A stretch of 64,000 nt of DNA from the NCBI GenBank assembly GCA_040285825.1, contig JAUPSS010000002.1, positions 3,038,001 through 3,102,000 on the forward strand. Reading direction: 5' to 3'. The position numbers and the translations under genes are program-made. This document shows positions 17,236 through 64,000 of the stretch, piece after piece (the first letter of the stretch is position 1; each line of letters opens with the position of its first letter). The stretch comes from Eukaryota sp. TZLM1-RC. Taxonomy: Eukaryota; Protista; Metamonada: BaSk clade. The notes under the pieces are model-generated. The model made no database searches. It saw only the letters and a program-made list of their open reading frames with translations, and was not told where the DNA came from.

Positions 17236-19126
17236 TAGAGATGCCGAAAACTCCACTTGAGTCTCACTCGAATCGAGTTCACTCGAGTAAACTCCACGTC
17301 ACTCCAAGAATTTTACGAATTGGAGTCGAGTTGGAGTTTCACAAAAACTTGACGAGTGAGTCGAGTTGGAGTGAAACTCGTTTCGGTCCCTTGTTTTATT
17401 TAAGCCAGTTCAACAGACTGAGACTCTGACTAATACAAACAGTTACTTTATAAAAACCTAGAAATGTAAAGCTACACTTCTAAAACAAAACAAAAACTAC
17501 GAGTACAATTCCAAGTTCATTGGATACCAAGATTTTAGATATAGAAGTATTTCAAGGACTTCATCAGAAAGTCGATTCCTTGTTTTGGTGACAGTATTTC
17601 CACCCAACGAGAAACACCGTTCTGATGGAACTGACGATGCCTGAGCTGCAAGAAACCGTCGCGCTAAAGATGAAAGTACAGGATATAAAGTTGAATGGCT
17701 TTTCCACCATTGTAAAGGGTCAGCAGTGATGGATTCCAATGGATTTAGCTCGAAAGAATCAAGTTCGTCGATTGGTTCTTCATTTGCCTCAGCAATATAT
17801 GAAATTGCTACATCGAGAGAGCTTGGGGGGGGGGTATTCTATATCACATATAGGGTTTTCAGAGAGGATAGGTGGATCTTCACCACTGTCTTCAAAGGAA
17901 AGTTTGTATGAAACATAATACGCTTTGAATTGCTCTCTGAATCCCCCATTTCTTAGCTTAAGAGGCATAAGTCGTGTCTTAAAGCGAGGGTCTAACAGTG
18001 TGGCTGCGTAGGTGGTGAAGTTATATAATTGATCATGATAACTGGAATGCTTGGACTTCATCGACGTTACCATATCCAAGACAAATAGTCTGTTTTGATT
18101 GTTTTCAATGTGAACATTGAGTTGTCTTTCAATTTCAGCAAACATGACAACTCCTGGTCCAATTGAGGGACTGGAAGAGGAAACCGTATTGGTGGCATTG
18201 TAGAATACCTTCAGAATGTCACAAAGAGTTCGTACATGAATCAGTTCTTGGGACGAAAGTTGCAAAATTCCTATATCTTCATCCTCACTGTTTGTAAAGA
18301 ACAGATTGATTTCAGAAAGCCTTTTTAGGTAGGTAGACAGCATGAAGTAGGTGCTGTTCCATCGAGTTTTTACATCTCTTCTGATCGAACACATATTTAA
18401 CTCTTTAAAGCAATCACGGTATTCTTGAGTCAGTTGAGTCGATGCAGCTAGTTTCTGAGCAAGCACTCGAATTTTTTGGCAAGTCTGTTCGACATGGACA
18501 AGGCCCGCCTGAACAATAATGTTAATAATATGAGCAAAGCACCTCATTTCCAGGATATGTTCTTTGCCAAGCTGTTGTCTTTCAACATTTACTTTCCTTA
18601 TGGCAGCTTGCATTGTTGGCGCATTGTCTATCGTAATACAATGATGTCGTGCTGTGGCTATATCATTAAACATTCTTGTCAGGCAACGAGCTGTTCTTTC
18701 TTCATTGTGAGGGTGTCCGAATGGACGCATGTCTGTCACAACATTCATCAATTGAAAGTGTGAAGTGATGAAGTGAGCTGTAAGACACATGAAAGGTGTG
18801 TTATTAGGAGAAGTCCAACCATCTGTTGTAAAGCACACGGTGTTGTTCTTAAATAAAAGTGTTGTCAGTGTGGTTTTTCAAGAATAGATACAGCATGAGG
18901 GAGTCGTTCTATATTGTACAAGAGTGTTCCTTTTTTGTTAATGATCATGTAAGGTTGCGGAATAAGAATTCAATGTTGAAGTGGAGTCTATGAGTGACTC
19001 GAGTTGGAGTGGAGTCGAGTTGGAGTCGAGTTCACTCGTGAATTGATTTTTTCCGAGTCGAGTCGAGTTGGAGTTCTGAAATTTTTATGAGTGGACTCGA
19101 GTGAAACTCAAGTTTCGGCATCTCTA
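17236..19126 (-). mobile_element. hAT transposon, internally deleted
   Basis: 14-bp perfect TIR TAGAGATGCCGAAA. 8-bp TSD CATATAAA (17228-17235, 19127-19134). ACTCGA/ACTCCA subterminal repeats. Confidence 0.95.
17497..18838 (-). pseudogene. hAT transposase lacking the N-terminal BED region; frameshift probably at the G-run ~17825-17834
   Basis: TTDGWTS, TIDNA, RCFAHIINI and TRWNST motifs; hATC dimerisation domain WWK...YPVLSSLARRFLAAQASSVPSERCFS. Confidence 0.9.
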
Positions 19127-23740: not shown

Positions 23741-24449
23741 GACTTATAAATTACTAAATTACATTGTTGAGTTCAACTGATTGACATCAATTCAGAAGAT
23801 TTTTCTCTTTTTTCACGTTAACTTTGTAAATTAGAAGAAATTTATTCAATCTTGTCAAATAATCTAACGCAAAATTGGAAAGTTCACTGCATGTCTCCAT
23901 ATTTTCCGATATGATTTTCTATTAATCACCCAACATGAATAGAAAATATCAAATCATCAACCAATGTTCCACATCCTGACATTATACATCATCTCCATCG
24001 AAACAGTTAATTGCTTGAGATTCTTAAAAACGACCAAGGATAGTGAATCAGAAATTAATATCACCATCCCTTTTACATATACCCTTATGACTTTTCCCTT
24101 AGAAGCACAATGTTGCCAACAATCAAGATTGAAAACTCTTCCAGTCTATTCTTTTACAATTAAACTAAGATCTCCAAGATAACGAAAAGCAGCCTTTATT
24201 AGAAAAACCAAGCAAAGAAAAAAAGGGACACATCTCATTTTGAAAATGAGACTTGTCATTAACAGAGGAAATAACTTTGGCGTATTGGACAATTTTCTAT
24301 ATTTTTCTAGCAGGAAAGGGAAAATGACAACAAAATGAAATAACTGTTCATTATCATACTAATAAAGGTCAATAGACACATTACTTAAACTAATTGAGCT
24401 TCCATTTAAGCCAATAACAAATCTTCTCCTGTCTTATTTTAATAATATT

Positions 24450-25190
24450 TCTTTCTTGAACAAATTACAAATCAATATCTAAATAATCCATCTCTCCCAA
24501 AACAAAATACTTAGATGCAACTTTCTCATAGTGAGAGCCAAAAGAAAGCAAAGCACCAGAAACCATCTTCAACACCCAATTTAAAAGTGGAAAACACAAT
24601 TCTACTTTGCCAAAACAATTTGTTCAAATTTCTATTGGTCCTTTTCTTCACAATCATTCCAAGATCTGCAAAAAAAGCTGAAGCAATTGTAGCAAGTAAA
24701 CCAAATAGAGAAAATACAATGGGATACACATTGTATTTTACATGCAGTTAGCTAGACCGTTTTAACAAAGGTTCACTGTATTTATTGATTTTGACAATGT
24801 GAAAGAAGAAGAATGAATTTCAGAAATAGCAGGCCTTTCATTTGAGATATTACAAAGATCAACAGACGTTACATTTACTAAAATGAAGGTTGCATCTAAT
24901 TCGGGTAATATGACATCACCTCTACTATTCTTAAGAAAATCATCTTCAGTATCAAACATATTTGAACATTGTGGGTTCAAAAACAAATCAATTCTATGAC
25001 ACTTACTCATACAAAATAATTGGTCTCATACAGCATTGTGAACCTTGCTTCTCACGGTGATACATTGTTTACCATCAAACAAGTGAGTAATTTTAATTTT
25101 TGGCTACAATTAAAATAAATTATGAGGTAAATCATAAGGCCAAATAAAGAGAGAGAGTATCATATACAAAGTCCAAGCAGAATCAGTTAA
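24450..25190 (-). mobile_element. decayed 3' fragment of the RLE LINE family seen at 44075-45239
   Basis: MSKCHRIDLFL...RGDVILP and YPIVFSLFG...FWQSRIVFS closely match ORF 44107-45243. Confidence 0.85.
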
Positions 25191-25576
25191 GAGCAGGACT
25201 TGGAAAAATTGAATTATGAATTCAATTATTGCAATTAGCTAACTTCAATTAGTCCAATAAGTTTTGAATGAATTTAACAAATTGTAGTAGGTCAATAAAG
25301 CTTAAGTATATCTATAGCAAAATTTAATAGGGCTTCTTTATTAGGAACAATTAGTTGGACAGTTAATTGCAATTACTGGAGGTTATTCAAGTATCGGTTC
25401 TTTCATCTGTTTAGTCGTAAGTTCATTGTAGTTATTTTATACTTTAGTCTTCATGTGCGAATAAACTAACTATACAAGTGTCTATGGTAAATTGTCTCTA
25501 TCAAAATTGTTGATTTGAGGTAAGCAAGGGCATTTATTTTCAATCTTTACACTTTTGTATCATTTAAAACCATCTA

Positions 25577-28697: not shown

Positions 28698-29239
28698 AAT
28701 TCTGCATAAACCTTGTTTTATCTAAATTCTAGCATTTTCTTCAGACACACATCGTCTTGAAGATGACTGTTTCGTAAAACTACACTAATGAATTCTGGAA
28801 AACTAATGAATTCTATTTTACAGTGTGATTATAGGTAGCGTTTGAGACTATTTGAGTAATTACTCTGTTTTTCTGTTTGTCATAAATATCTTATTTACAG
28901 TAATTTTATGAGAAGTAATGACACTTTCTCTTTCAATACAAATAATTGGCAGAACCGCTTCAGTAATATAAACTCATCGAAATTTAGGATTTTCGTAGCC
29001 GATAAGAAGTAGAATCTGTTTTTTCAATAGGAATAGTAAATAGAATTTAATTTTTCAAATAGTGTTAGCGCAAACGCCGTGGTGTCACATAAACAATTTG
29101 ATGGTTTTTCAAAAATTCTTGCTGTGAACAAAGTTTTCCCTTGTTTTTGCAAATCAATTGAGAAATGGCTGCGATCCTTCAAATGGACTATCTGTGATAC
29201 TGTTTAAATGGAAGCTAAAAGAAGTGAATTTCTAGGAGA

Positions 29240-32181
29240 ATGTCTAAATCCACAACTTATTACACAACTAAAAGAAAATTTATTAGAAGAAAAGAGTCTA
29301 AGGTAGAACCAATAAATGATTCTCCACAAGTTGTTGCAAAACCAGTTAACAATCGATTGAAGCACAAAACTTGCAACAATTGTGGTATTTCTTTAAGAAA
29401 AAATGCAAAAGGAAAAACGGCTGATCGATGCTTGAAATGCCGCATAGTTGATAACTATCATCCTCCCATAAAAATACCTCAAGAAATTCATCCGTCAAAA
29501 CGCAATGAAATTGCTTTCGTTTTTAAAAGATTTTTGGATCAACTATGTAAAGGAAAGTATGCTATCAATATTCTTTGGGAATTTTTTGGTTCTTTTTGTT
29601 TTCCTTTTGAACAAAATCTCGTAAATAATTCCGAAGATTTAACTAATATAGCACCGAGAAAACAGTCATCTGAGAAAATAAGTAAAATTTTTGAAGACAA
29701 ATGCTTTGACAACAAATGGTCCACGGTTTTGTCAGCTTTAAGCCCCGGAGTTAAAGCACCCCACAATGAAAATACAATAGATAAACTAAAAATACTTCAT
29801 CCTTATGAAGACCCTATAATGGATCAAAATTTTTACGGAACTTACTGGGAAAATTATCCATTGATGGCATCAGAAGTATTTTCGGTGATAAAAAAGAGAC
29901 CACGCGGTAAGTCTGCCGGACTTTCTGGTATTACTATTGATCATGTAAAAGCCGCAATTATTTCTTCAGAGGATGGTCTTGGTTTATTAACCAAATTTTT
30001 CAACAAAATATTGACTGGTCAACTCAGATATCCAGAAGAATTCAGAAGTTCTCGTTTGACTGCACTTGTCAAAAATTCAAAAATGGATGTTCGACCTATT
30101 GCAGTTTTTGAGAGCTTACAAAATATCTTTTTTGCGTGTTGCTTGAGCAGGTTCAATGAGAAGGCAAAAAAGATTTTATTACCCTTTCAATATGGAATTA
30201 ATACCACTGATGGAATCTCTTCAGCGATATTTGCTACTGATGTATTATTTCGCCAAAATGAATCCAATGTTTGTATGTCATTGGATTTTAGTAATGCTTG
30301 CAATTCACTAAGTCGTCGCAGTATCCATGGTGCTCTATTGCAATATATGCCGGAATTAATACCATATTTTCAATCAACATATTGCACATATTCTAATTTA
30401 CATTTTGGTAATTGCATGTTGAGTTCATCAAGTGGTGCAAAGCAAGGAGATCTGCTAGGACCTCTTTTGTTTTGTTTGGCCATTCATCCTATTTTATTGC
30501 AAATTCAAGAGATGTTTCCTTCACTAAAAATGATTGCATATATGGATGATGTTGTTCTTATTGATGATTTAAATATTGTGAAACAAGCAACTTTATGTTT
30601 TAAAGAATTACTTACCAAAATTGGTCTCCGACTTAATTTACTTAAATGTGTTTTGTTATCGAATTTTCCAGTTTCCACAATAGTTGATGGTATTGAAATT
30701 CAAGCCAAATTATATTCAATTGATGATATTCGTTATTGGGGTTCGTTTTTAGGAAATAATGATGAAATTACCAAAAAATTGTTTGAAAAGTTGAACTCAA
30801 TTTCCGACAAATTGACCGAATGATGAATTTAGATATACAAAAACACATCAAATTTACCATTATAAGACTGTGTTTTAGTTCCAAATTTAATCATATATTT
30901 CGATCTACAAATCCTCTCGTCACTAGACCTTTGGCTCAGAAGTTTAATGAATTACGTGCAAAAGTTTTCTCACAATTACTGGGATGTAAAATGTTCCAAA
31001 ATCCAGACCATGCTTACCTTAGTCCACATTATGGCGGTTTAGGGTGGACGAAGGCTTCTATTCTTACCTCGTGTGCTTTTGTTGGTGGATGCAGAAATGC
31101 AATCTTTGAGTTTTCCGAAAGATTTGCAGATTGGGAAGATTTATTGATGACAACGCAAAGTTCCACTGTTTTTGCATTAAATGAAGAAATTTCAAAAATT
31201 GATGTAGAAAAATGGGGTCGATGTTTTCCCCAATCATTCAATGGCAATATTCCAGAAAATAATGTTTTAAATTTGAAGTACACTGTTCGAACATTACAGA
31301 AACGATTGACTGGAATGTATGAAAAAGATCTTTATGATAATATATGCAGCTCGGCTGTTTTAAATCAAGATCTTCACTCATTGTTATTGGAAAAGGGTGT
31401 TTGTGAAAACAAGGCGTCAGATTCTTCACTTTTTGTAACCATTGTACCACGAAGATTTGGATTGTGTGCCACTAATGAAGCACTTGTAACAAAAATGAGA
31501 TTATATTTGAATATTCCCATTAATCAATTATTATCAAAAGAAAAATGTATTTGTTCGAATTCACCTCAACTCACTTTGCGCCATGCTCTGAATTGCTCTA
31601 AATTGATAACTTATCGTTCTTCATTACATGATGCTGTTAGAGACACTGTTTTCAATATGGCACAAACTGCAAGAATATCGTGTATCAAAGAGCCCCTGCT
31701 GAAGGAAACACTTTTTCTGAATAATTTTGGTTCTGATGATAGAGGTGATATATACTGTGATTGGATTGATAATTCTGAAGCTATTGTTGACTTTGTCTCA
31801 TGTAATGTTGCAAATGATACTTTGGTTCACAGAAGAAAACTTAATCCTGTGACTGCTCTTGATCTTAAAACAAATGAGAAACATAGAAAATATGATAAAG
31901 ATATTGAAGAGGCTAATGCCGATAGAAATACACAGCTGGTTTATATTGCTTTCCCATTTTCGATAAATGGAAGATTATCAGATGATGCAGAAACTTTTTT
32001 GTGTGACTTCCAAAAAATGGTTCAAGAAAAAACAATGAAAAGATTTGATATTTGTTTATGGCGCTCCCGGATTCAATTTTCCATTATTAATAGACTACCT
32101 CGGTTTTTCAATCGAATAAGAGAAGCTTTAGCTAGACAGCAAGCAGATCAAGATTTTGTAGAGGAAATCTTGGTTCAATGA
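29240..32181 (+). pseudogene. RT-RLE polyprotein split by one frameshift at ~30820
   Basis: GKSAGLSG, RPIAV, LDFSNA, QGDLLGPLLF, AYMDD and GGLG; CICS...HALNC, HDAVRD, RGDI...VDF and EKHRKY. Confidence 0.92.
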
Positions 32182-38067: not shown

Positions 38068-40648
38068 ATGTCTGACCGTGGACGTGGAAGAGGTCGTGGC
38101 GGCGATAGAGGCCGTGGACGTGGTGACAGAGGAGGCCGTGGACGTGGCGGCGATAGAGGACGTGGGGGACGTGGACGCGGTGGTGGCCCTGGACAACGTT
38201 TGTTTGATATAATCTCTAACCTTAGCTAAAGATATCGGTGCCGATTTCCTCCGCGGCATTGCCAATAGCCGTTCTGTTGGACAGGGACAGCTCATGTCCA
38301 ATTTCCATCGCATTAACATCTCATCGGAAAAGACTCTCTATGTTTATGCCCCATCCTTCCCTGCTGAAGTTAACCAGGATCGCCCTCGCAGAAGATTGAT
38401 CAGTTCTATGTGGCTCAAAGCTTTCGGTTCTCGTGATGACATCCCTTACGACGACATTGTATTCGATGGCAATCTCATCTATGCGCTTAGAGAAATTCCA
38501 GAATTTGACAACATGGCATATGATGTAAGTTACCAGATTCAAAGACAAGAACACACATGGAATATGGATATTACCCCCATTCGTCAAGTAGCAAACCGAG
38601 ACTGTACCTCCATGGACAACGCCCAAGAATTAGAGCAACTTCATGCCTCACTATTAAAGTTTGCTTTGCGTAATTCCGATTTGTTAGATTTCCGCGGCAA
38701 TTTCTACGACCGTACTCCACGCCAACACCCCCTATCTGGAGATTTCGACATTCTTCCCGGCTGGATTCCTCGTATTCTCTGGAGAGAATGTGGCTGGGTG
38801 TTAGAAGTTAACACTCATAATAAGTGTCTCAGTAAGAAGAATATGTTGACAGAAATCAATGAATTTAGAAATCAATTTAGGGGATCAGAAGAAGAGTTCA
38901 AAAGAGAAGCCTCTGATATGGTTGCTACAGGAAACTTCTGGTTGTCCCATACCAGAAAGTTTGTCTCCTTTGATGGTATCGACTGGGACATGTCTCCTCG
39001 CAATACTTTTGATAAGAATGGCAAGCCTACTTCATTTGCTGCTTACTTTAAGGAAATGTATAAGGTTAATCTTGATCCCAATCAACCAATGGCTTTTATT
39101 AGCCCTCCTGGTCGTGACACCACGTACTTCCCTCTTGAACTCCTACGTAAGGGAGGAAATTTCCCTGCTGAATTACTTGAGATTATTACCCAACTTACTC
39201 AGACTCTCCCTGGGGAAACTGTCCAACGTGTTGAGCAATTTTTTGAGAGCATGAACAAGAAAGTTTCTCGCAACAATCAGCCTCTTTTATCTCCCAATCA
39301 ATTCCTCAAGCGCTGGGGTATTGAGATTCCCACTGATTCAAAGACATCTATGATTGTTTTAAATTCTATGAAGCTTCAAAAATTCAATATTGATATTGGT
39401 TCTGAAAAGCTTACCAATGATCCGCACAGTTTCAAACCTCCTGCACTAAAGAATCTTAGAATCCCCAATCCACAGGTTCCCAGAAGCTGGATCTTTGTTT
39501 ATCATGATGCGTGCTCTCGATATGCTGAAAACATTCTTGAAACTATCAAAAGACAAATGAAAACCTATGTGGGAAAGAATGTTCCCAATCCCATTGTTCT
39601 CAAAGTTCCCGGCAGAAGCAGATTTGAAAAAATCATTGATAATGCATTGAGAGGAAAAGCTCCTCCTTCTTTGATTTTCGCTTGTGCTGTTGATCAAGAT
39701 TCTGGTACTTATGATGGTTTTAAGAATTACTGTTCTCCCAGAGGTATTGTAACTCAGTATATGGCCGCCTCAAAGCTACAAGGGAAGCCAGATATGGTAA
39801 TTGCCAGCAACTTGGTATTCCAAACCCAAGCAAAATTGGGTGCCACTCTCTGGAATGTGGAACTCTCTCCCAAATTATTCGGTCCCAATGGTAGCTTCCC
39901 CACTTTGGTTCTAGGTATGGATGTCTTCCATCAAGCAAAGAAGAACTCTTGTCTTGCTTTGGTTGGTATGTTCGCCCATCAAAACCGCCTTCGGTTTTTC
40001 TCCAAAACTCAAGAGCTCGAACCTCGTCAAGAAATTTCTGATTTCGTTGCTCCCATGGTCCAGGAATGCTTACAATTCTTTGCTCAGAACAAAGCCCCCA
40101 AACCTCAATCTATTATCTTCTACCGTGATGGTGTTGGTGAGCATCAATTTGATCTTGTCCGTAAGCGTGAGCTGGATCCTGTCAAGCAGGTGATTTCTAA
40201 AAACGTTCCTAACACTCCTCTGGTTTTCTGCATTGTCCAAAAGAGAATTAACACCAAGTTCTTTGATCCTAGCTCCCGTGACTTCAATTTAATTCCTGGA
40301 ACTGTCATCAATAACACTGTTACCCGTGACTCAAAGCTATATCCCACTGATTTCTATATTCAATCGCATGAAACAAAGGTAGGAACGTCTACCCCTGTAC
40401 ATATTGATATTTTACACAATGGTTTACCTCCTCAAGCTCAAGTCACTCCCCAGGATATTTGCAATGTCACTTATGCCTTGTCTCATATGTATTACAACCA
40501 GGCTTCTGGTATCAAGGTCCCTTCTGTTTGCCATTATGCCCATTGCCTTGCCATGTTCATTGGTGAACATTCACTTGCTCCTGCAAATGCCCAACGTAAA
40601 CTCATGCCGATTCCTCGTCAATTGTGGGATAAGCTTCATTTCATTTAG
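38068..40648 (+). CDS. piwi: PIWI-clade Argonaute, 850 aa; join(38068..38197,38226..40648)
   Basis: RG/RGG-rich exon 1 joins in frame through the 28-nt intron GTTTG...CTAACCTTAG. PAZ (SFAAYFKEMY, DPNQPM, FPLELL), MID (YDGFK, TQ, KLG) and PIWI domain with GMDVFH, RQEI, YRDGV and YAH; C-terminus DKLHFI. Confidence 0.95.
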
Positions 40649-42730: not shown

Positions 42731-45700
42731 TAACTTCCTTTACTCAACGGTAATATTTATGGTAATTAGATTATTTGCGTTTTATATCATTCACAGTTCA
42801 TGTTTACCTGCTATAGAAAAATACTTGACTTTGTTGCAACTTTCTATTTTTCAAAATTGATAATGGCATTTGTAGCATTGAGTTTTATTTGTAAATAAGA
42901 ACCGTCACTGAAATTCCAGCAAAATAGTCTCCACAAAGGCAACGGCCACCATGATGTAACTGATTGTGGTGACTTCAAGTAGTACGAATGGGCTTCTCTA
43001 AACAATTCGAATGTTGTTTTACTCATGTTGGTGTTAAACAGCGGTGTTTGACGAAAATTGGGAAATTAGCGATACTACACTATATTTACTTCCATTAGCT
43101 CTACAGTACAAAATTCATGAGGAACGATGAAAGAACTGAAATGTTGCAAATAAGTGGCATCGTCATGATTGAAAGATAGATTTCACAGATTGTGTGTTGT
43201 TTATTAAATTTCGTCATTGAAACAATCTGTTTCATCAAATTGATCTATTTCAATACACTATACAACAAACTTAAAATTCTAAATCTTTGTATCCCCAATC
43301 AACCAAACATAATTGACTGGAAATATTCCTCTCCTAAAACAGACCAACAGATAACAAAGCAGAAAATAATAAGGGATCAAGACCATCAACAATTTAAATA
43401 ACTATTCTGTTCTGTCAAATAACCTTATCAAAAACTCTGCTTGTACATTGTTTAAGATAGATTTATTCCTGGAACAGACACATTTTACAACTCAATGAAA
43501 AACCTTAGCTTATGCTTTTAGCTACTGAAACCCCATCAACTGAATGGCGGGAGATTTTCGCTATTCACATGGATATCAATTCATTTGTTATAAAACTCTG
43601 TAATGTTATTCATAATGGAGTTAATGAAACGCAAAAGGGTTTTCAATAATGAAAATACAATTCTGTTCTTCCAAATCAAGAAATTGAATGTACGGCAACT
43701 TTCCTTGAGAAGTGTTCTTAAATCATCTCAAAAATTGAAACCTTCAGTGCCAATCGTACCAAAAATTGAAATGACAATTGGGAAAATTTCATGTTTCTGC
43801 CTCTTGCTCCATTGAAAGGTTGTAGAAGGGCTTTGTTCTTTGATTTCGTGGAAGAAAACAGTGTATGTACACTGCTTTTTACTTTCAACAAATTCATTTA
43901 AGAACAAAAAAACAATAAGTCCAAAAGAGCCATGTAAGGAGAGACAATTTTTTGTTTAATGATAGTTGCTCCAGAAACAGGATAGTTAAGACCAATACAT
44001 GATTAACTGAATTGAGAGTCTTTCAAAAGTAAATGTTTCTAAACTTTAACACTTCACTAACCACACTCAAAACTTTTTTTTACAAAATTTTAATTTAATT
44101 CAAAACCTATAAATCAACATCTAAAAAATCCATCTCTCGCAGAACTAAAACACTAGATGCAACTCTCTCATAGTGAGATCCAAGAGAAAGCAAAGCATCA
44201 GAAACCATCTTCAAGATCCCCTTAAAAATAGAAAACACAATTCTATTTTGCCAAAACAATCTGTTGAAATTTCTGTTAGTTCTTCTCTTTACAATTATTT
44301 CAAAATCATCCCTAAAACGTAAAGCAGTTGGTGCAAGTGAACCAAAAAGGGAAAATACAAATGGATACAAATTGTATTTTGCATGCTGTAGACTGGCCAA
44401 TTTGGACAAAGGTTCATTGTATTTTTTGAGTTTAAAATTTTCAGCATTTGAAAGGGGATTATGAATTTCAGAATTAACTAGCCTTTCATTTGAGGCATTA
44501 CAAGGATCAACAGACATTACATCCAATAAAATGAAACTTCCATCTAATCCAGGTAATATAACATCACCTCTATTATTCTTATGAAAATCATCTTCAGCAT
44601 CAAACAGATTTGACAACAGAGGTTCCAAGAAGGATTCAATTCTATGGGATTTACACATACAATATAACTGGTCTCTTACAGCATCATGAACCTTGCTTCT
44701 AAAAGTAATAAAATGTTGACAATTTAACAAATGAGTAGTTGTAATTTCTCGAGAACATTTACAAATTAAATAATGAGGTAAATTATCAGGCCAGATAAAG
44801 GAACGAAATCTCATATTCAGAGTCCAAGCAGAATCGGATAAGAGAGTACCATAAACTTGTGGAATTGTTGTTACTAAGGCAGAAGAAGTACTGTCACACA
44901 TATCTTGTAAAAGATTTGCAAAAGCGGGATTCTGTTTCTTGGCCAAGCCAAGTCTAACATCAAAATCCAAGCTTTCAAAAATCTTTGACAATTTTTGTTG
45001 AAGCTTTTTACAGCAAAACTGTAAATTAAAAAGCGATCGGTTTGCAATTTCTTGAGTTGATTGGGGAAAACATTTGGTCCAAATTTGTGGTGGCAATTTT
45101 TCAAGTTCACAAGATAACTCATACAAATAGGGACTGCAATTGGGGACTAACAGATGAGAATCATCAGGAAATCTACGAGAAAATTCATAAATAAAATTTT
45201 TGCCACCACCCAAGAATGCTGATTGACACAAAATAGAAGACACTCAAAACTACTGGAACTTAACAATAATTTAAGACAACAGTGAAATTCACCGAATTAT
45301 TGCAGGTAGCAATGTGAAATGCTTGATGGTCATACCAAAAAGTCTTTGCTTCCTAAATTTCAAGTCACAATTTCAAATGAATTCCTTACAATGGATATAT
45401 GGTTTTCCTTAAATCTGTTGAATGCAGATTATTGAACTTCTCACAAGATTTCCACCTAATGCTCCCCCCTCTTTCGGTATTGAGGTTCTTACTGCTGCTT
45501 ACACTTGATCTTTCCTGTCGTTTACTGCACTCAGTAGTCACTAACGCATCTTTTTTGCTTCTTGATGGATTCCACTCCTTTATTTAGGATCTCCCCTCAT
45601 GGACTCTATTTTCAAAGTCTGCTCTACTCCCATCGTCCCGATTCTGCTTCTCGGGATGAGTTGACTGGGTACAGTCCCCGAATCAACTCTCTACACTTCC

Positions 45701-46417
45701 TTCTGTTGTCATTCGTCCATCAGTGCTCTGAACAATCAAGCATCATTTTCTGCTGAAGATTCTTCACGATCTCTCCTTGTCTGATCCCTCTGTTACCTTT
45801 GATCTTTGCTTGGTGATCAATTTAAAAATGCTGACCTTGACTTGCCTATTATTTGGATCAGTAATTGTTTCTCCATCGCTAGGACTCGAACCCTTGACCA
45901 GAGGTATGTATAATCTGAGAGATACACAGCTTAAATTTATATGAATTTTGTACTTTTGATTTTATTCAAAATACTGAATTTATCGCTTTACTACTGATTC
46001 ATCAACTTCACCAATATCAAAACTTTAGGTACAGTTGATTCTGATGGTAAAGTTATTAGTGGATGTGCTCATGGTGAACCTCTTATTACCCTTGTTAAAT
46101 CTAATGTTGATTTTGATGATGTAGTTGTTGGTTGTCAATCTCATTCTATTGTTGCTACTGATTCTACTATTGATTAAGAAGCTCTTCTTGTTCGTGATTC
46201 AACTGCTACTGATGGTCACTTTGAATTATTACATTTTGAGTCTCTACCAAATATTGAGAGTAATTCTCTTTATTTAGAGTCTCTATTTATAAATACACAA
46301 ACGACTCAGTAATCATCAATCATTCAGTTTTTAACTGTATGAGGTTGGTTGCGGTCAAGAAAGATCTGATTATGTGTGTCTGTATAGTCTACATGTTTTC
46401 AGATTTTTGCATGTTTT
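42731..46417. repeat. copy 2 of the ~2.5-kb duplicated block, interrupted by the LINE at 44075-45239
   Basis: Collinear with 3671-8319; lacks the MULE. Confidence 0.9.
44075..45239 (-). mobile_element. 5'-truncated RLE non-LTR retrotransposon
   Basis: 12-bp TSD ACACTCAAAACT (44063-44074, 45240-45251). The T-run at 44074-44081 is the A-tail. ORF has CKC...HLLNC, HDAVRDQL, RGDVI and LLDV. The empty site is at 7166-7177. Confidence 0.93.
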
Positions 46418-48829: not shown

Positions 48830-49490
48830 AATTCCCAACCGATCATTGCCATCAGGTTTGTTACTTTTTCCAGGTTTAACTAATGCAACTGAATGGGCAG
48901 TACTCAGTTCAAGCGGAGGAGCATAATTCAAATACATTCAATTTTGAAAAAACGGCAAGATCCTCAGAAATTTCTGGAGCATTCTTACATGCAGTATTCA
49001 ACAAATTAAAGGAAATGCCTGAATGACCAGCAGCTTTTCTTTTTGGTAATTTAACAATGGCATTTAATACTTCTGGAGTTGGAAAAGGATTTTCGAGCCA
49101 ATATTGACAAATTGAAGGCTTACTGGGGCAAAAATTTTCAGTTAAAATGAAGGGCTTTCAGTTTTTCAACTGTGTCAAGATTATTATCTGCCAGTTTTCC
49201 CAAAAAATATTTTTTAAACCGCTTCCATATCTACCTCTCAGGAACAATTTTCTTGCTTGAAATGATGAATTAGCTTTTCTTTGTTTTGGTTTGTAATTAA
49301 TTGTCTTCTTATTCTTTTTGGCAAAGAATTTCCAAAATCTAGTAATGTTCCATTTTTTGGTTTCAATTGGGAGGAAAAAGAACGCATTTCCATAGACACT
49401 GGAACAGAACTGGTAGGACTTACTTCTACATGAATTTTAACAGGTGCACGAAGAGAATCACTTGTTTGACAATGAAAACAAAACAAGAGA
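48830..49490 (-). pseudogene. decayed N-terminal RT fragment of a CRE-like LINE
   Basis: VLNAIVKLPKRKAAGHSGISF parallels VIKKRPRGKSAGLSGITI in ORF 29240-30823. Confidence 0.7.
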
Positions 49491-50730: not shown

Positions 50731-52360
50731 CAGTAACCTCTCTATAACTTCTCGGTCTTGGGAACCAACTAAAACCGAGAACTTATAGAAAGCGAGAACT
50801 TATACAATTCCTTGATTACTATCATTAAACCTATTGAGATTACAAGTTTATTCGATATCAATAACTTCAGATGCAATTTCATTCAACTTAGGTGTTAGAA
50901 AGTTCATCAACGGAATTTGTTTCTTCCTCTTTAGTCTAATGGTTTCTAACTCACTCTCTGCTTCATTAAGAGTATACAATGAAGGATGTTTTTGGTCAAA
51001 ATTGTCCATAGCATAAGATTTGATAATCTGTAGCGCATTGTATGCTTCTATTCTGGAAACTTTTGGTCTTGACTCGTCTTCGTTTATGTCATTTTCACAC
51101 AATCCGTCCAGAACACAGTCTCGAACAGTATCCAAGCATTCTTCAACCGAAAGTATACCTTCGGTCGCGATGTCCTCATCTTCAGCCACAATATCATCAA
51201 ATTCCTCAAGATCTACGTTCAAATCTTCTACAAAATTAGTTTCATTGTCGTTAATCTGTCCGGTTTCATTCGAATCTCTATCATGACAGTTCAATAGCCC
51301 AACTTTCCTCCAACAATTGGAAATACATTCTCTGGTCACCATAGACCAACTAGAGGAGATAATGGGGAGAACGTCAACGTTGCCTATACGTTTTTGGGCT
51401 TCGTCCTGTGTGACTCTTTCAGTAACAATAATTGGCAATATTTTTCTTAGAAAAGGTTTTGAATAAAAGCGCTTAAACACTGCAATAATTCCAGAATCGA
51501 GTGGTTGGATGTGTGAAGTGGCATTCTTTAACAAAAACTCAGTCCTCACATTAGACAAATTTTCAGTTAAAATGTGAGATGGGGCATTATCAATGAGCAA
51601 CAGAATTTGTCTTCCATTTGCTCTCATTTTTTCATTCAGTTTCTTACAGTAATCGGTAAAAATTGATGAAGTCATCCAAGCCTTTTTGTTAGCATACCAC
51701 AATAAGTTCAGTGAATTGGCAGTGTTTGGTTTCATACCGCGAGGCTTTTGAGACTTGTTGATGATACCGAGAGGCATTTTCTCTGACCCATCTGCATTTA
51801 CACAAAAAACCAGAGTGATTCTTTGCTTAGAATCTTTAAAACCAGAAACGTATGATTGAGTTGTGTGAGTTTTAACAGACGTGTTTTTTCTTCAAAAAAC
51901 AGCAGCTTCGTCTAAATTCCATATGTCTTCAGATTTGTACTGAGACAATAATGGTTCCAGAGATCTTCGAAAGTCATCAACAGCCAGTTCATCAACAGAA
52001 CCTGCATGTCCGTGAGGAGTAAGAACTTTTATTCCATGTCTCTGTTTGAAAGATTCGAACCAGCCATCACCGTGTTGTAACTGGTCGCTTTTTGGAATAT
52101 CCAGGACTTCATAAAGCTTTTCTGCCTCTGTTAGAATAACATCTTCAGTGATTGTCATGAGAGCTGAGTTTGACTCAACAAACAGTGCAAGAGCAGCATC
52201 AAGGTCAGGGTGTTTTACAGAACGAACTCTCTTTGCAAATGGTCTCAAATTTTTGCCCAGGGCAAGAGCTTGCTCAAGAACTTGTGAACGTCGCTTCAAA
52301 ATCTTTCCAATAGTTGTACGATGGGGTTTTGAGGGCAAGTTGAAAGTCTCTTTAGCCTAG
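50731..52360 (-). mobile_element. Tigger/pogo transposon; 5' end lost at the LTR-element junction
   Basis: TA|CAGTAACCTCTCTATAAC terminus, CGAGAACTTATA subterminal repeats, transposase inside. Confidence 0.85.
50848..52338 (-). pseudogene. Tigger/CENP-B-like DDE_1 transposase with a frameshift at ~51890
   Basis: HTH region (KHPDLDAALALF, WFESFKQRHGI), then IWNLDE, RITLVFCVNADGSEK, LLIDNAPSH and HIQPLDSGII. Confidence 0.92.
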
Positions 52361-55780: not shown

Positions 55781-58088
55781 CAGCGTGGCACCTTGTTGCT
55801 TTCGCGAATGAAAAAAAACGCACTTTTGAAAAAAATGCATTTTTTTTTGTTGATTTTGAGGACTATTTCTTAAAAGCAAATTCTCATTACTCCAATACCA
55901 CCTAATCTTTCCTTCTCCTCTTCTGTCATGCCTCGCAAACGAGACATCGCTTGGGATTACGTCATAGAACTTTCCTGTGATGACTCTAACCCAGATTGTA
56001 CAATAAATCTTGATTCGACCGAAGTTATTCCTATTGAAAAAAATTATACACACCAATGTGTTTATTGCTCCTTGAAGTACACTCCAGGTTCCGCTACGCG
56101 CATCAAAGACCATATTGTGGAAGTTCCACCAGGAGAGAGAAGCAACATCTCTGTTTGCTTGGTGGCTCCCCGAAAAACAATAATCAAACTTTTAAATACT
56201 CAGCTTGACACACTATCTCCTTCTGCAGAAAAACGGCTATCTTTCATATCTGAAGGTGCTCCTATCAAGAAAAAACCATTAAATACATTGATTTCTAATG
56301 GGAAGTTGAAAGCCGCAAGAACAGCTGTTGGTGATTTTTTCTATGGCTGTGGAATACCATTGCGCATCATTAGAAGTAAGTGGTTCTGGAAAATGATCAA
56401 AGCAATTGCCGCAGCAGGCCCATCTGTCAAAAAAATCGGTTATAATGCTCTACGTACCACCATGCTCGATAACCGTTACAAAGATGCAGTCACAGAAAGA
56501 AAAGCAGCCATTGACAACATTTCTGATATTGGATGCACAGTAATGGCAGACTCGTTCACCTCAGTGTCAAAACATTCATTGACTGGTATCATGGCATCAA
56601 CAGGTAACTCGGTAATACATTTGAAAACAGTCCATAACGATGCCGTGTCACAAAATGGTGACTACCTGAAAGAGGTTTTAGAACATGTAATCAGTGAATT
56701 AAACGGAAAAGTCGTCAACATCGTGACTGACCAAGGTTCTGCTTATGTAAATGCTGGAAACAGGATCCAGTCGGAGAATCCAAGCATCTCTAACAACTTC
56801 TGTGCATGTCATCTGCTTTCGAATTTCTTTAAAGATGTGTACAAACTACCTTTTGTGCGAGACATCATAAGAAGAGCTGTTGAGTTAGTAATGTTCCTCA
56901 ACAACCACCAGTTAATTTATGATGTCTTGAGAAACAATGGTAGTTGCTCATCGTCTACACCAGGGGACACCAGGTTTGCCACCAATTGGATACTTTTGGA
57001 AAGCTTACTTGGTGCGAAAGATAGTATAATAAGTATTTTTGAAGGGGAAAGCTATTCTGAATGGAGAAACCGATTATCAAGTACACTCAGGAACACGGCA
57101 GACCAATGGAGCACAATTGAGCACAATGGAGCACAGCGTTACATGGTATTTCACTTTGGTTGGAGTTTGAAGAAATTTATAAATGTTGCTATTCAGTTTT
57201 GAAGTTGTTTAAACTATTTGATTGTAATACGCCATTGTCCGCAGAAATTCTTTATTTGATAGAAGAGGCTAAAATTGAAATGATTAATTATGATGGGATC
57301 ATTATCACCGACAAGAGGAAGAATCTCATCATTGCATCGTTTGATGACCGAACCAGTCAATTAATAACCGATTTCTACGTTGCTTCTGCGATGCTAAACC
57401 CAAAAAATTATCTTCCTGAAAGACTCAATTTTGCTGAACGGTTATTTGATATAAGTAAGTTTCAAGATTTTGTGTTAAAAATTACCAGTTACGACAGTGA
57501 TAAGGCACTAGATTTACTGCGTCAATTTTCTGTTTGTCAAAGATTCAATAATCACACAAGTTTTGGAAGGCCCTTAGCATTAGCAGGAAGAGAGAAAGAA
57601 AATTTTAATGCTATGATCTGGTGGTAGCAGTTTGGTTATGACGCACCTGAGCTTCAAAAATTGGCATTACAATTGGTGTCCCAATTTGTGTCTGCTTCTG
57701 CAGTTGAGAGATTGTGGAGTCTACATGATTGGATTCATTCTAAGCGTAGAAATAGACTCACTGAAGAGCGTGTAAACAAATTAATAGCAGTGTATGATTT
57801 CCTGGCAAGTTGTCGTCAAGAAGAAGATTCTGAAGAAGACAACAAGACGGAAGATTGTATCGAATTATTGAATGTTTGCTGTCAGCTGTTAGAAGAAGAA
57901 GATTGAGAGTCCTAGTTTCTAAGGCAATGAACTGATCTATTGTTGGTGTTTTAGTTTTACAATAAATTATAGTTACAATGTGTTTATTTGTTACATATAG
58001 TATAGAATTTCATCCAAATTAGAAAATTCATTTGTAAAAAACGCAGCCCTGACGAAAAAAACGCATTTTCGTTGGGGGTGCAACTCTG
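55781..58088 (+). mobile_element. hAT transposon (BED + DUF659 type), full length, disrupted
   Basis: TIR CAGCGTGGCACC vs reverse complement CAGAGTTGCACC. 8-bp TSD GAAGGATC (55773-55780, 58089-58096). AAAAAAACGCA subterminal motif at both ends. Confidence 0.95.
55928..57906 (+). pseudogene. hAT transposase with a frameshift (~57105-57135) and a stop (57625-57627)
   Basis: BED CVYC...IKDH, MADSFT, VTDQGS, CACH, TRF and SASAVERLWSLHDWIHSKRRNRL. Confidence 0.9.
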
Positions 58089-59067: not shown

Positions 59068-59236
59068 AAGCCCCTATGAGTAATCCTGGTCGAGTTGTCC
59101 CAATTTTCCAAAGTGCTGACTGCTACTCCTGCAAGGAGTACCTATATCTATCGGAGTATATATATTACTCACTTAGTTGATGAGTTGCGAGACTTTGCCG
59201 TCGGTATGTCTATAACCAGACAGATGTGAGTCTCAT

Positions 59237-59850
59237 TTGACTAATTCCCAGAACTCTAGAAAAAGTTCCCGTAAACCTGCTCCCGAACTCGCTGAAGAAA
59301 GCGAAGTTAGACCTGAAGACATCCAAATTAATCTGCCAGAAGCCTTAGCCGAAGAAGGCCCTGACAACCAAGAAGAGGATGAAGTCCCTCTTCTGTACTC
59401 TGATGACTCTAATGTTCCTGATGAAGAGACTGAACTGTTACGTCTTTTTGGAGCCCAAGACCCTGAAGACCTAGAATCCCTGCTGATTCCTTATATTCCT
59501 AAATGCATTGCCCCAGAAGATTTGGATACATTCCTTGTAATCCACCAGAAGACATTAAAATACTTGCTGTCGAACCTTAGCCGAAGTTCCTGAAATGTGG
59601 TGATGCAGACGAAGTCATCACCAGATATACCAGAGACTTCATGAAGGTTGCTCGCAAAGAGGATTTACAGATTTACCTCCATCGCTGAGATGATATCCCG
59701 ATTGAAAGAATTGCTCCCTGATTACCACCGACCTTACTCCAAGAATGCTTTACTGTTTGAAGGCAGATTGTCTCAAAGGTTTCAGAATGCCCGTGGCCAT
59801 AGAACTCAACCCAGAACCCAGAATGTTCCAAGTAGTAGAACCGCGGAAAG
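59237..59850 (+). pseudogene. gag-like fragments
   Basis: Broken ORFs; RIYRFTSIAEMISRL resembles RRMQFTSYHEACSAI of the gag at 12891-13877. Confidence 0.35.
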
Positions 59851-59880
59851 AAGAAAAAGGTTAAAAAGAAACCTTTTATT

Positions 59881-60730
59881 GATGATCCTGTCCTTAATCA
59901 AAAAATTAGTACCTCTAATCGCCCTCTTATTTGTTCAATTGATATTGAAACCAAGGAAATTGGTACTGAAATAACCAAGAAAAAAGATGTTAATAAAGCT
60001 TTAGACAATTTGCGAGCTCAACAAAAGAAATCACAGTCAGATCGACATCGCCAAATGACTGATGATGAGCATTTGTTAGAACAACAGGTTTTTTTGGAAC
60101 GGCAGGAAATTTTAATGATTTCTATGATTTTGTTTGAAATTGATTATTATATATGGGATACTATTTTTCACTCCTCAAGTATAGATTACGTTGCTAATTT
60201 TGAGGGAACGAGACGAGTATTTTTATGGACCAATGATGACAAACCGGTTTTTAATGTCTCCTTGAATAGATGTAATCATGAAAAAGATCTATTGAAGTCA
60301 TTTGCAGAATTCACTTATGATAAAAAATTGTTGGTTTCTTAGGCCATAATATTTTTAATTTTGATTTACCTGTGTTGGCTGTGCGATTATCACATTTTGG
60401 AATCGCTTTTCCAATTTTGTCCCAAAAGATTGGTCTAAATGAATTATATCTTCACCGACGTTGGAGAGAAGTAATACAGTTTTATGAAAATTTCACTATT
60501 TCGGACACTTTTTTGTTTGCCAGAAAATTCATTAAAATTAGATAGAGCACTTCATTGAACAATTTAGCATACCATTTACTTGCTGAAACAAAACTTAAAC
60601 TTCATGATGAGTTTAAAAATTCATTACCTATTAATAACCTCTATTCAAATAAGGCATTGAGAACACTGGGATCTTATTGTCTTCAAGACAGAATTCTTGT
60701 ATTTAAATTGTTTATTGTATTCCAAAGGGC
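59881..60730 (+). pseudogene. PolB-type DEDDy 3'-5' exonuclease domain, copy 1
   Basis: ExoI ICSIDIET (~59929-59952), EKDLLKSF, ExoII GHNIFNFDLPVL (from 60342), SLNNLAYHLL and ExoIII YCLQD (~60675); carries a frameshift and a stop. Confidence 0.8.
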
Positions 60731-62051
60731 TAAAACAGAAAATCAGTCATGTTCTACAGTAAAGACCTATGTTTCATCTACAGCAAGGTGAAGAGAATTA
60801 CAAGAAGAGTTACTTGTAGCATCTGATGTAATGACTGCTGTGAGACAGCAAACTGTGTTGAGTGTCAAACAATTCCTCTTAACCAAATTCATGAAAGACG
60901 AAGACAAATTTTGACTACAAATTATTTTATCACACAATGATTTGTATGGAAAAATTTTCTTCACAGGTGCATGGGAATTTAATTAGTATACGATAAGCCA
61001 ATACGAACGTTAAGTGAGGATTTCAACAACTTTATTTTTGGGTTGGAAACTGATGATAACAACTCTGAACTTCCTGGGTGTCGTCATTGTGTTATTGAGT
61101 ACACAAATTCTTCATCAGTTTGCCATATGCCTAGACTAGATTATGACCATTTAAATAGATAATTTGAATACATGAGTCAATATGAGATGTGGCCTGCGTT
61201 TGAACTAAATATCAAAAGAAATTATCATTTATATATAAAAAAGTTTATTAATCCTTCAATGTGAAAAAAGATTTGGAAGATCAAATGAAGGAAAATAAGA
61301 CACAATTCCTTCCGGAAAGTTTGGAACATTTGAATTATCTGCAACGCCAAAGATTTCTCAGTAATTTCAGATTTCGTTTAAAAATAATTAAGGATTTGAC
61401 AACCGGCGGGGATCGAAATGAATTAATCAATTACTTGCAAAATTTTAAAATCATTCCGTACTCACCAAGGGAAGAATTTATGAGAATTTCCACTGTGTAA
61501 CAGCTAGTAATATTGTGCCAGAAGCTTGAAGTGGGGACATGTCGGACATTGTTTTAAAAGTTTGAGAATCTATTTTCGGTGATTCTGGAGATGAAGAAGG
61601 AGAAGCTGAATGCATTGATTATTGAAAGTCATCACCAGAGGTATCTGGAGAGAGGGGAGCGAGAGTTAGGACGTGATGTGTCTGAAAACGTTTTTTGATT
61701 AGGGTTCTGTGGAAGAGCGCCAAAAGCTGCTCAGGGTGAAGAAGCAATCACCATGTCAGACATCTCTCAGCAAGATTCTCTTGACACTTCACATTCTTCT
61801 AACATCATGCAGCAAAAGGAGAAAAAAGATGACAATGTAACGAACTCAGATCCCACCTCTTCCTTCAACCTGTTCTTCACAGTGCAGCAGAATTCTTCCT
61901 CACAAACTCCTCAGTCGGGCACAGTCGTCCTGCTTTACAAGAATAAACGGAAGGTCAGAACCTTTATTCCGAACGGAATCGTCGGTCTGATCCACTACCC
62001 CCACTACCCCCAGTACCATTGTAATTTGCTCATTTACTGATCCTATATACA

Positions 62052-62480
62052 GCTCTGAATACGGAATGGTTAGATGAAGCGACTATTTCCAATTATCTTT
62101 CCACTTTGAAATCTTCACACATAGATTTCATCCATTCTGCAACCATTGTCGACTTCCTCAATAACGACGATTTGGCATCAGAGCATATGAAAACAGTATG
62201 TGTTTTATTCCTGTCAATGACAATATACAAGGGAATGGTTGTTCACATTGGAGTTAATTAATCTTTGAAAACTTTAATAATACGAGATATTTTTACTATT
62301 TAGATTCTTAGACTAAATCACTTAATTTTGAAGTTGCAAAATTGATAGTTAATCAGTTTGGTGACTTGGCGCCAATTGTCACTTTAAATAACAAACCACG
62401 ACAAGCTAATGGATATGATTGTGGAGTGTTTGTATGTTGGTACGCTGCTATGGCCAAGCAGGTGTATGAATCCAATGACA
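62052..62480 (+). pseudogene. Ulp1/SENP8(NEDP1)-like cysteine protease (peptidase C48)
   Basis: WLDEATISNYL; FIPVNDN...GCSHWS* (His codon at 62246); FYYLDS*; PRQANGYDCGVFV (Cys codon at 62420). One frameshift and two stops; absent from the ORF track. Confidence 0.85.
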
Positions 62481-62805
62481 CCACTTGGATTTGGTGAATT
62501 TTATAGATTTTTTATATGGATCTGGATTAAACGTGGCTGAATTCAGAATGAATTTAGAAATTTAAGATATTCAACTTTGCACTGATAGTGAAATCAAAGA
62601 AGCTAGTACCAGAAATCATCAGGATTAACTACAATCTGGATCAAGACTAGACAGTCAGCCCAGAAAAACAAAGTCAACAGCAAGATCAACCCCTCCTTCA
62701 AAAATTGTAAGACCAAAACCATTAATTGTTGACTAACAAACATCAAAGGGTAAGCGAAAACGACAACAATAAGCACTGAACAGAGAAATTTGTATTGAGA
62801 ATACA

Positions 62806-63720
62806 ATGTTGAATATTGAGATCAGGAAGATTTTGACAAAAAGACCATTGAAACCGAGTATGGTTGGAACAATTGAGCCAAGTCTTAGCGGCTTCAAGCC
62901 TGATCCATTGATTAAGTTGAAATCAATGACGACAAATCAAAATCTTCCCACTGTTATGTGCTTTGATCTTGAAACCTATCAGGATGGTCATCTTTACCAA
63001 AGACATGATGGCCAATTTCTCCCTCCTGACGAGATTATCAACAAAAGGAGAAAAGAGGGTACAAATCTTTTGAAAAAGAAAACTGATGAGCAAATGGGTG
63101 AGTGGATTTCAGATCAAGAAGTGTTTTTACTTTCGATTGTTATTGGTAAATTTGACATAATTTCTTTTTGGAGAGTAAATATTCACTTATGTTGAGAACG
63201 AGTCCTCAAGTCAGCAGATTACCAGAAATTGCTACGGATATTCAGGCAGAAATTTTCTCTGACGAGAAAACCTTGCTTCGTAAGTTCTTAAACCTTATTG
63301 GTAATAATTAACCACATTGTTTTCTTAGTCACAACCTAATGCAGTTTGATTTACAGGTTTTAAAAAATAGATTAAATTATTTTGATTTGCCATTTCCTAC
63401 TGTTCGAGATGGTACAGCAATTGATGTACTCAATCAACTTTCACCAAGATGGAGAGAAGTTGTCATCAGGGAAAATGGCTTTTTTCTTTAAGATACTTGG
63501 TTTTTTGCCAAAAAATTCATAAAAATACCTTACGGACATGGATAAAGCAATCTGGCATATAGAATGATAAATGAAAAGAAAATCAAACTTCATCAGGAAT
63601 TTTCCCATATTTGACCAATTGATTGCTTAGCTACTTCTCCTCTGAGACAAAATTCAATTCAATATGGGCTTCATGATTGTATCCTTTGTCTGAAACTTTT
63701 CGTGCTGTTTCAAAAAGATA
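62806..63720 (+). pseudogene. PolB-type DEDDy 3'-5' exonuclease domain, copy 2
   Basis: ExoI MCFDLET (Asp codon at 62965), FSDEKTLLRKF, ExoII SHNLMQFDLQVL (~63328), SNLAYRMINEKK and ExoIII YGLHD (~63663); several stops. Confidence 0.8.
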
Positions 63721-64000
63721 AATTCATTTTATCATCTTATAAAACCATTCGAGCAACCGTCAACTCAATGGTTAAACATTCAAATGTGATACTCAAATTG
63801 AGAGAAACTGCTTCAAAATTTCAACAATTGCGAATTCACACCACTTGTTGCTTAAAGCTGTATTTACAGTCCCGATTTGAACGTAATTTAGTACTACCAC
63901 AAATATCTACCAAATTAAATGAATCATTAATGGCCAGAAGTCGTTATTCTTCAGTTGAGTATTATGGGCAAAAAATGGTAAAGCCAAAAAGTGCATTTCC

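Follow-up and report, generated by a model that had tools for sequence, protein, structure and literature searches.

An exonuclease-Fanzor1 fusion in mobile elements of skoliomonad protists

We analysed a 64,000 nucleotide long stretch of DNA from Eukaryota sp. TZLM1-RC (GenBank assembly GCA_040285825.1, contig JAUPSS010000002.1, positions 3,038,001 to 3,102,000 of the forward strand), a protist which we take to be a skoliomonad. This stretch, in the following called the window, is transposon-rich eukaryotic DNA with a GC content of about 36%. Towards its right end it carries remnants of two mobile elements that belong to a jumping-gene protein of protists, in which a complete Fanzor1 is fused directly to a 3'-5' exonuclease of the family B DNA polymerase (PolB) type; a protease often precedes the pair. 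The copies in the window are dead relics, and the interest lies in their apparently whole relatives. We have very little doubt that the fusion exists, that its catalytic motifs are intact, that many families share it and that the protease recurs.

A sequence-only reading of the same DNA had described a module of a SENP8-like C48 protease between two stand-alone exonucleases. Translation confirmed the three domains in the places assigned to them, all on the + strand, with Pfam matches for the protease and the second exonuclease. The exonucleases are diverged paralogs as proposed (35% identity over 189 amino acids (aa), E 4e-34), and neither is followed by a PolB palm. Instead, a Fanzor1 begins without change of frame at 60738 in copy 1 and at 63726 in copy 2, such that neither exonuclease stands alone. 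Nor do the three domains form one module. Copy 1 is what remains of a truncated member of one family, and the protease and copy 2 are parts of another element. Both copies show ExoII, ExoIII and the beginning of Fanzor in a single frame of the window sequence itself. The fusion is therefore not an artefact of gene models.

Copy 1 (59842..61446, + strand) is an internal fragment of a family-1 exonuclease-Fanzor1 gene that is truncated at both ends and decayed by four frameshifts and four stops. It is colinear with aa 189-716 of the database protein P0223, with 77-100% identity in five segments. P0223 is a whole model of 1233 aa in which a 2A-like motif is followed by the exonuclease and then by the Fanzor1. 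Exonuclease 1 (59938..60737, +), of the DEDDy type, was delimited by its motifs (ExoI IDIET at 59938, ExoII at 60342, ExoIII YCLQD at 60675) and by residues 23-297 of the structural model of the intact relative. The window pieces of copy 1 alone gave no Pfam exonuclease match; an intact relative gave one with E 7.5e-7. The Fanzor1 start (60738..61446, +) comprises the N-terminal lobe and ends before RuvC. It has a profile match at 60989-61270 (independent E-value 2e-10) and is 77-79% identical to P0092, which continues to a full RuvC. We place the right break at 61446 because two read contigs of related copies lose their match there. On the left, the match to P0223 ends at 59842. Directly 5' of this point lie acidic open frames (59216-59841, +) that are unrelated to the N-terminus of P0223 and have no clear Pfam match; they are perhaps a gag-like remnant at the truncation point.

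About 310 bases (61447-61760) separate the break of copy 1 from the first matched segment of element 2 and may hold the left part of the latter. Element 2 extends left to at least 61762 and reads SENP8-like protease, linker, exonuclease 2 and Fanzor1 from 62043 to beyond 64000; its aligned segments contain three frameshifts and ten stops. The multicopy upstream segment (61762..61991, +) is 64-67% identical to the N-termini of the gene models P0029 and P0023 and is covered by up to five diverged read contigs. The SENP8/NEDP1-like C48 cysteine protease (62043..62470, +; one internal frameshift, two stops) matches Pfam Peptidase_C48 (E 8.1e-6), SENP8 as best PDB entry (E 1.2e-5) and the protease of P0074 (45-53%). 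Its catalytic set of His (62243-62254), Asp (62294-62308) and Gln/Cys (62399-62425) is present. The linker to exonuclease 2 (62482..62961, +) is in one frame with four stops; it matches the P0074 linker weakly (24%) and in colinear order, and has a short match to the stretch after the 2A-like motif of P0223 and P0023. A six-frame motif scan found no 2A-like motif in the window copy. Exonuclease 2 (62962..63725, +), again of the DEDDy type, has one frameshift near 63160 and its motifs at 62962 (ExoI), 63327 (ExoII) and 63663 (ExoIII). It matches Pfam DNA_pol_B_exo1 (E 2.6e-8) and is 76-88% identical to family-2 proteins. The Fanzor1 start of copy 2 (63726..64000, +) continues in the frame of ExoII and ExoIII and is open to the window end; relatives that are 79-88% identical (P0023 and its family) run on to RuvC I-III. 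A reading of the last window residues as the PolB motif that precedes the palm was ruled out, since relatives show Fanzor there. A read search listed no RNA data set and two DNA runs of one sample, both with small shares; their contigs contained diverged relatives of both copies, and no joints that would define the element ends.

The relatives were found in protein databases, whose entries are automatic gene models of partly decayed copies. With copy 2 as query, 6 of 532 longer candidate proteins matched with 76-85% identity, all of them annotated as hypothetical and assigned to Eukaryota sp. TZLM1-RC. The C-terminal extensions of these proteins are not polymerase, and the sole PDB match of P0012 was a weak one to GtFz1 (E 0.014). 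Used as a query in turn, the extension returned 14 proteins from three assemblies, among them whole proteins of 1194 and 1278 aa with both domains. P0018 matched SpuFz1 with E 1.4e-21, and sequence matches of the relatives to SpuFz1 overall ranged from E 1e-14 to 1e-22; the Pfam library used has no model for most of Fanzor, and precomputed annotation of these proteins lists PF26935. At 90% identity, whole fused proteins formed clusters of 42, 7, 14 and 17 gene models. P0011 (reverse transcriptase and exonuclease) and P0021 were rejected as element parts, since each appears to be a model drawn across nested insertions.

Searching 1.84 billion representatives with a profile of the exonuclease plus the Fanzor start yielded 723 matches at E 0.001. 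We classified 149 of the best 150 (P0019 was left out): 9 span the junction, 73 cover the exonuclease side only and 67 the Fanzor side only. The junction is where an ordinary Fanzor1 begins, since 53 of these 67 Fanzor-side matches start at it, at median residue 14 of the protein. For seven of the nine junction-spanning proteins the labels are all of three skoliomonad assemblies; P0070 and P0086 resemble P0007 and P0075. Judged from the best 150 of the 723 matches, the fusion is provisionally restricted to skoliomonads. Three assemblies of skoliomonads, which are metamonads, contain at least nine fused families; the labels GEM-RC and TZLM3-RCL stand for Skoliomonas isolates, described in the consulted part of 10.1101/2023.05.03.539051 as free-living metamonads. 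Sixteen representatives, two of them from one family, mostly share 25-37% pairwise identity (range about 21-55%). In all nine families examined the linker between exonuclease and Fanzor amounts to about three residues.

For P0223 aa 189-1233 a structure was predicted from 41 sequences as protein only, with no nucleic acid (predicted local distance difference test score (pLDDT) 78, predicted template modelling score (pTM) 0.70). In this model, residues 23-297 align to PolB exonuclease domains with Z 18-19 over about 200 residues. Residues 300-1045 align to residues 18-632 of SpuFz1 (Z 24.9, root-mean-square deviation 3.9, 576 aligned); the Z scores against PpFz1 and GtFz1 were 24.4 and 20.5. 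Foldseek returned Fanzor1 with E 1e-22, and the seven best fold matches were all Fanzor1. By this ranking, the predicted Fanzor half appears closer to Fanzor1 than to Fanzor2 or TnpB. The overall WED/REC/RuvC/TNB fold of Fanzor1 is thus found in the intact relative P0223, the window holding the N-terminal part only. An earlier model of P0008 from 8 sequences (pLDDT 53) had fold matches to PolB exonucleases only.

Among the 16 representatives, counting those that cover each site, the Asp of ExoII is kept in 14 of 14, Asp/Glu of ExoI in 11 of 11 and the Asp of ExoIII in 12 of 14. The ExoI count drops P0023, a model without ExoI whose alignment there is spurious, and the ExoIII mismatch of P0153 is probably a misalignment. 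In the relatives, outside the window, the RuvC triad is D (9/9), E (6/6) and N at the third site (6/6), and alignments to SpuFz1 put the rearranged RuvC-II Glu just upstream of the C4 zinc finger. RuvC-III reads RN in all six, which departs from the RD pattern of Bao and Jurka and equals the triad of active GtFz1. The consulted part of PMC11423790 reports D-E-N as the active triad of GtFz1 and a raised activity of SpuFz1 upon D606N exchange.

In a quick tree the Fanzor halves of nine fused families fall on one side of a branch (SH-aLRT 100) and 15 unfused Fanzors on the other, a split of the sequences that is consistent with one old fusion and does not prove it. As to the donor of the exonuclease, Pol delta was the best PDB sequence match for two intact relatives, in agreement with the RNA-primed type of PolB suggested from the sequence alone. 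Archaeal PolBs were among the best named database matches, and all these matches are weak.

The protease recurs upstream of the fusion. P0074 reads 2A-like motif, protease, linker, exonuclease and Fanzor start, colinear with 62043-63995 of the window. P0243 combines in one model a 2A-like motif, an intact SENP8-like protease (E 2.9e-6), a partial exonuclease (Pol delta match, E 2.5e-5) and a Fanzor1 (E 1e-22). The order is that of the window in P0074 and in P0243 from another species. P0226, from the family of copy 1, has the Gln/Cys tail of the protease ahead of its 2A-like motif, so that three database gene models carry the protease or its tail. A protease-exonuclease polyprotein, as the sequence-only reading had it, is thereby supported, as is a relic of an undescribed mobile element; the link between the two enzymes occurs elsewhere and no longer relative examined continues into a PolB. 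The protease is missing from the models of other families and is therefore optional. It would most likely remove NEDD8- or SUMO-type tags or process the polyprotein.

The 2A-like motif GD(V/I)ExNPGP occurs in seven families, always upstream of the exonuclease, in exact form in four and with His for Glu in three; none of 118 other profile matches has it. The part of PMC3708506 consulted describes 2A-like sequences of non-long-terminal-repeat (non-LTR) elements, where upstream context is needed and the motif alone is insufficient. Just 5' of the motif, P0020, P0042, P0059, P0067, P0023 and P0074 have tandem peptide repeats, which are probably minisatellite DNA. In the gene models P0066 and P0229 a DEAH-box helicase (aa 654-1106 and aa 1-453) precedes two different exonuclease-Fanzor families. 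The helicases are 99.8% identical over 453 aa and lie on different contigs; P0073 and P0228 have the N-terminus of P0066 and skip the helicase. From this arrangement, helicase and exonuclease-Fanzor are possibly part of a larger helicase-bearing element.

For the fused protein we think it fairly probable that the intact enzyme would cut the empty site of its element in an RNA-guided manner, that the exonuclease would trim the leftover 3' tail and that repair would copy the element back. For the trimming of the tail to aid homing we see an even chance. As for other Fanzor1, the cut would be directed by a guide RNA from the element's 3' end and would fall about 14-21 nt from the insertion point. 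At the side of the target-adjacent motif (TAM) the displaced strand would keep a single-stranded 3' end that mismatches the junction of the donor element and would have to go before copying starts or finishes there. The exonuclease, sitting almost without linker on the N-terminal, TAM-contacting end of Fanzor, would remove the tail and yield a priming 3' end. Proofreading-type exonucleases favour single-stranded 3' ends. The 2A-like motif would free the effector from the upstream polypeptide, and the optional protease may process the polyprotein itself or strip host or element proteins of NEDD8/SUMO-type tags. According to the consulted part of PMC10432273, the cuts of SpuFz1 fall after base 16-17 in the non-target and after base 20-21 in the target strand, and the WED/REC domains read the TAM. 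Likewise, the consulted part of PMC2988022 reports that the 3'-5' exonuclease of T4 DNA polymerase influences td intron homing efficiency. The complete scenario, a homing enzyme evolved in a lineage of metamonad mobile elements that cuts and trims within one chain by means of a Fanzor1, a captured proofreading domain, a 2A-like motif and a deneddylase (in some elements with a DEAH helicase), is put forward tentatively. The same holds for its component in which the captured deneddylase, in some elements together with the helicase, would disarm or assist the host.

Several points weigh against this picture. Restorative homing by gene conversion has been shown for TnpB and IscB and not for Fanzor, as far as covered by the consulted part of PMC13565253. 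Most Fanzor1 work without such a domain, hence the exonuclease is not essential. Cutting and trimming are activities predicted from sequence and model. No guide RNA, TAM, element end, target duplication or transposase was seen in the window, which stops at the Fanzor start. The ExoIII Asp is replaced by His in P0041, and two representatives lack the ExoIII Tyr in the alignment. Some models have apparent false introns, P0223 lacks about 10-14 aa that are found in P0226, and the models P0243 and P0023 lack ExoI. Most family models lack the protease, among them P0023 from the family of copy 2, and with the window protease as query none of 18 candidates among longer proteins matched. Finally, the tree was rooted at its midpoint, and the unfused proteins in it, none of them a Fanzor2, were drawn from the profile search described above.

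Fusions of the TREX2-Cas9 type shift outcomes towards deletions. The exonuclease could make the guided cut irreparable, its eroded ends deleting or destroying empty sites, competing elements or invading DNA. A tethered exonuclease would indeed attack any freed 3' end, and engineered 3'-5' exonuclease fusions such as TREX2-Cas9 serve to raise editing efficiency (PMC13370227). However, an element spreads less directly when the empty allele is destroyed than when it is converted, and our analysis gave no sign of guides aimed at foreign DNA, so we regard this alternative as unlikely.

It is more doubtful still that the task of the exonuclease is to shorten the guide RNA, which is transcribed into the flank, from its 3' end to about 15 nt. 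RNA-trimming enzymes do occur among DEDD exonucleases, yet the present domain is closest to the proofreading domains of DNA polymerases, which act on DNA. Fanzor guides do reach into the non-conserved flank (PMC13565253, in part), whereas unfused Fanzors obtain mature guides even in yeast (PMC10432273, in part).

The sequence-only reading had considered an action against host ubiquitin-like or small-RNA defences. Since a Fanzor1 is fused to each exonuclease, DNA-end processing is a better role for the latter than an attack on small-RNA defences. For the protease, counter-defence directed at ubiquitin-like tags is the likeliest role of its own. That both enzymes are counter-defence cargo on the Fanzor chain, aimed at host ubiquitin-like tags or sensing rather than at the Fanzor cut, appears improbable to us. 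The SENP8-like protease recurs in four element lineages and the host genome carries a Piwi-domain gene, as such cargo would have it. The exonuclease, however, lies about three residues from Fanzor in nine of nine families, with the 2A-like motif always upstream of both. This close coupling suggests that they work together as a unit.

We consider it a very remote possibility that the exonucleases stand alone or are what is left of PolB genes from a Polinton or an endogenous virus: the exonuclease fold is of the PolB type and its look-alikes in the structure atlas are viral and cellular PolBs (all scores <0.9), but ExoIII is followed by Fanzor1 both in the window and in all longer relatives that we examined, the fused gene models gave no match to a polymerase palm, capsid, packaging ATPase, integrase or DNA_pol_B, and viral and metagenome scans, giant-virus bins included, found at least 11 loci (L001-L011) with unfused Fanzor1 only. 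The endogenous virus of the sequence-only reading thus finds no support in these results. The same applies to a Polinton/Maverick identity, as no polymerase follows the exonucleases and the protease is SENP8-like and not of the adenain type.

In the open literature searched we found no natural exonuclease-, C48- or 2A-Fanzor fusion; Repbase and subscription papers lie outside this search. For Fanzor it covered parts of PMC3627910, PMC10432273, PMC10711439, PMC10530073 and PMC13565253, together with supplements to two of these papers. According to PMC10530073, extra domains are frequent in Fanzors (its fig. S1B), so that a prior listing of the fusion is possible. The exonuclease-Fanzor1 fusion is real and, as far as searched, undescribed, and it is a variant of Fanzor1 rather than a new class. 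With at least nine divergent families and apparently whole copies, it is a natural counterpart of hand-built fusions of an exonuclease with a guided nuclease. A long-kept exonuclease on Fanzor1, catalytically intact by its motifs, suggests that processing of the ends is what limits the outcome once the cut is made. The Fanzor repertoire gains a 2A-like motif and a SENP8-like protease, and Fanzor1 is placed in metamonads. If our reading of cutting and trimming in one chain is true, eukaryotes would possess a natural multi-enzyme RNA-guided effector.

Elsewhere the window contains a Piwi/Argonaute gene without introns (PAZ and Piwi; 38213-40648, +), just 5' of which a G-rich repeat (38081-38192) would encode RGG motifs. 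Among transposases we noted a decayed hAT-like one (DUF659; 55874-57906, +), further hAT-like frames by eye (10911-12479 and 17789-18877), a pogo/Tigger-like DDE_1 transposase with one stop (50848-52356, -) and a second DDE-like frame by eye (395-1903, -). At 29228-32181 (+) lies a non-LTR retrotransposon that encodes a reverse transcriptase and apparently ends in a restriction-like endonuclease, with fragments of such elements near 22985 and at 24400-25200, 44076-45243 and 48850-49200. A member of a related family has apparently inserted into an exonuclease-Fanzor in the model P0011. Long duplicated segments of 80-99% identity lie about 38-39 kb apart (3757-4877 and 42797-43915; 7010-8315 and 43907-46413).

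Among known systems the fusion resembles Fanzor1 most directly (SpuFz1 8gkh/9ceu-9cez, PpFz1 9cf0, GtFz1 9cer; PMC3627910, PMC10432273 and PMC11423790, each in part), with which it shares the fold over SpuFz1 residues 18-632. Like Fanzor1 it has the D of RuvC-I, the E of RuvC-II just before the C4 finger and, as GtFz1, an N at the third site, and it is multicopy in a eukaryotic genome. It differs by a PolB exonuclease of about 270 aa at the N-terminus, whose motifs are intact, often by a 2A-like motif and sometimes by a C48 protease upstream. Fold (Z 18-19) and ExoI/II/III motifs are those of the proofreading domain of RNA-primed PolBs (Pol delta, alpha, epsilon, archaeal PolB, RB69 gp43); in contrast to family B DNA polymerases, palm, fingers and thumb are absent and Fanzor1 stands in their place.

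Captured C48 proteases, as found here, have a parallel in the Ulp1 proteases of MULE, NeSL and Zisupton elements. A host-type exonuclease has likewise been captured by P and piggyBac transposons with a DEDDh domain (cited in the consulted part of PMC3627910) and by LTR elements with a DnaQ-like domain (PMC6338049, in part). In those transposons, as far as described in these parts, the accessory domain is never fused to an RNA-guided nuclease. In the non-LTR retrotransposons of PMC3708506 (in part), GD(V/I)ExNPGP likewise stands upstream of the main protein; here, unlike there, it precedes an exonuclease-Fanzor without reverse transcriptase and has His at the key Glu in three of seven families. 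The homing of the T4 td intron (I-TevI, DexA, gp43; PMC2988022, in part) similarly combines an offset cut with a PolB proofreading exonuclease that affects homing. There, however, the nuclease is guided by protein and the phage makes the exonuclease as a protein of its own, whereas here both enzymes are joined in one chain, in a role that we infer.

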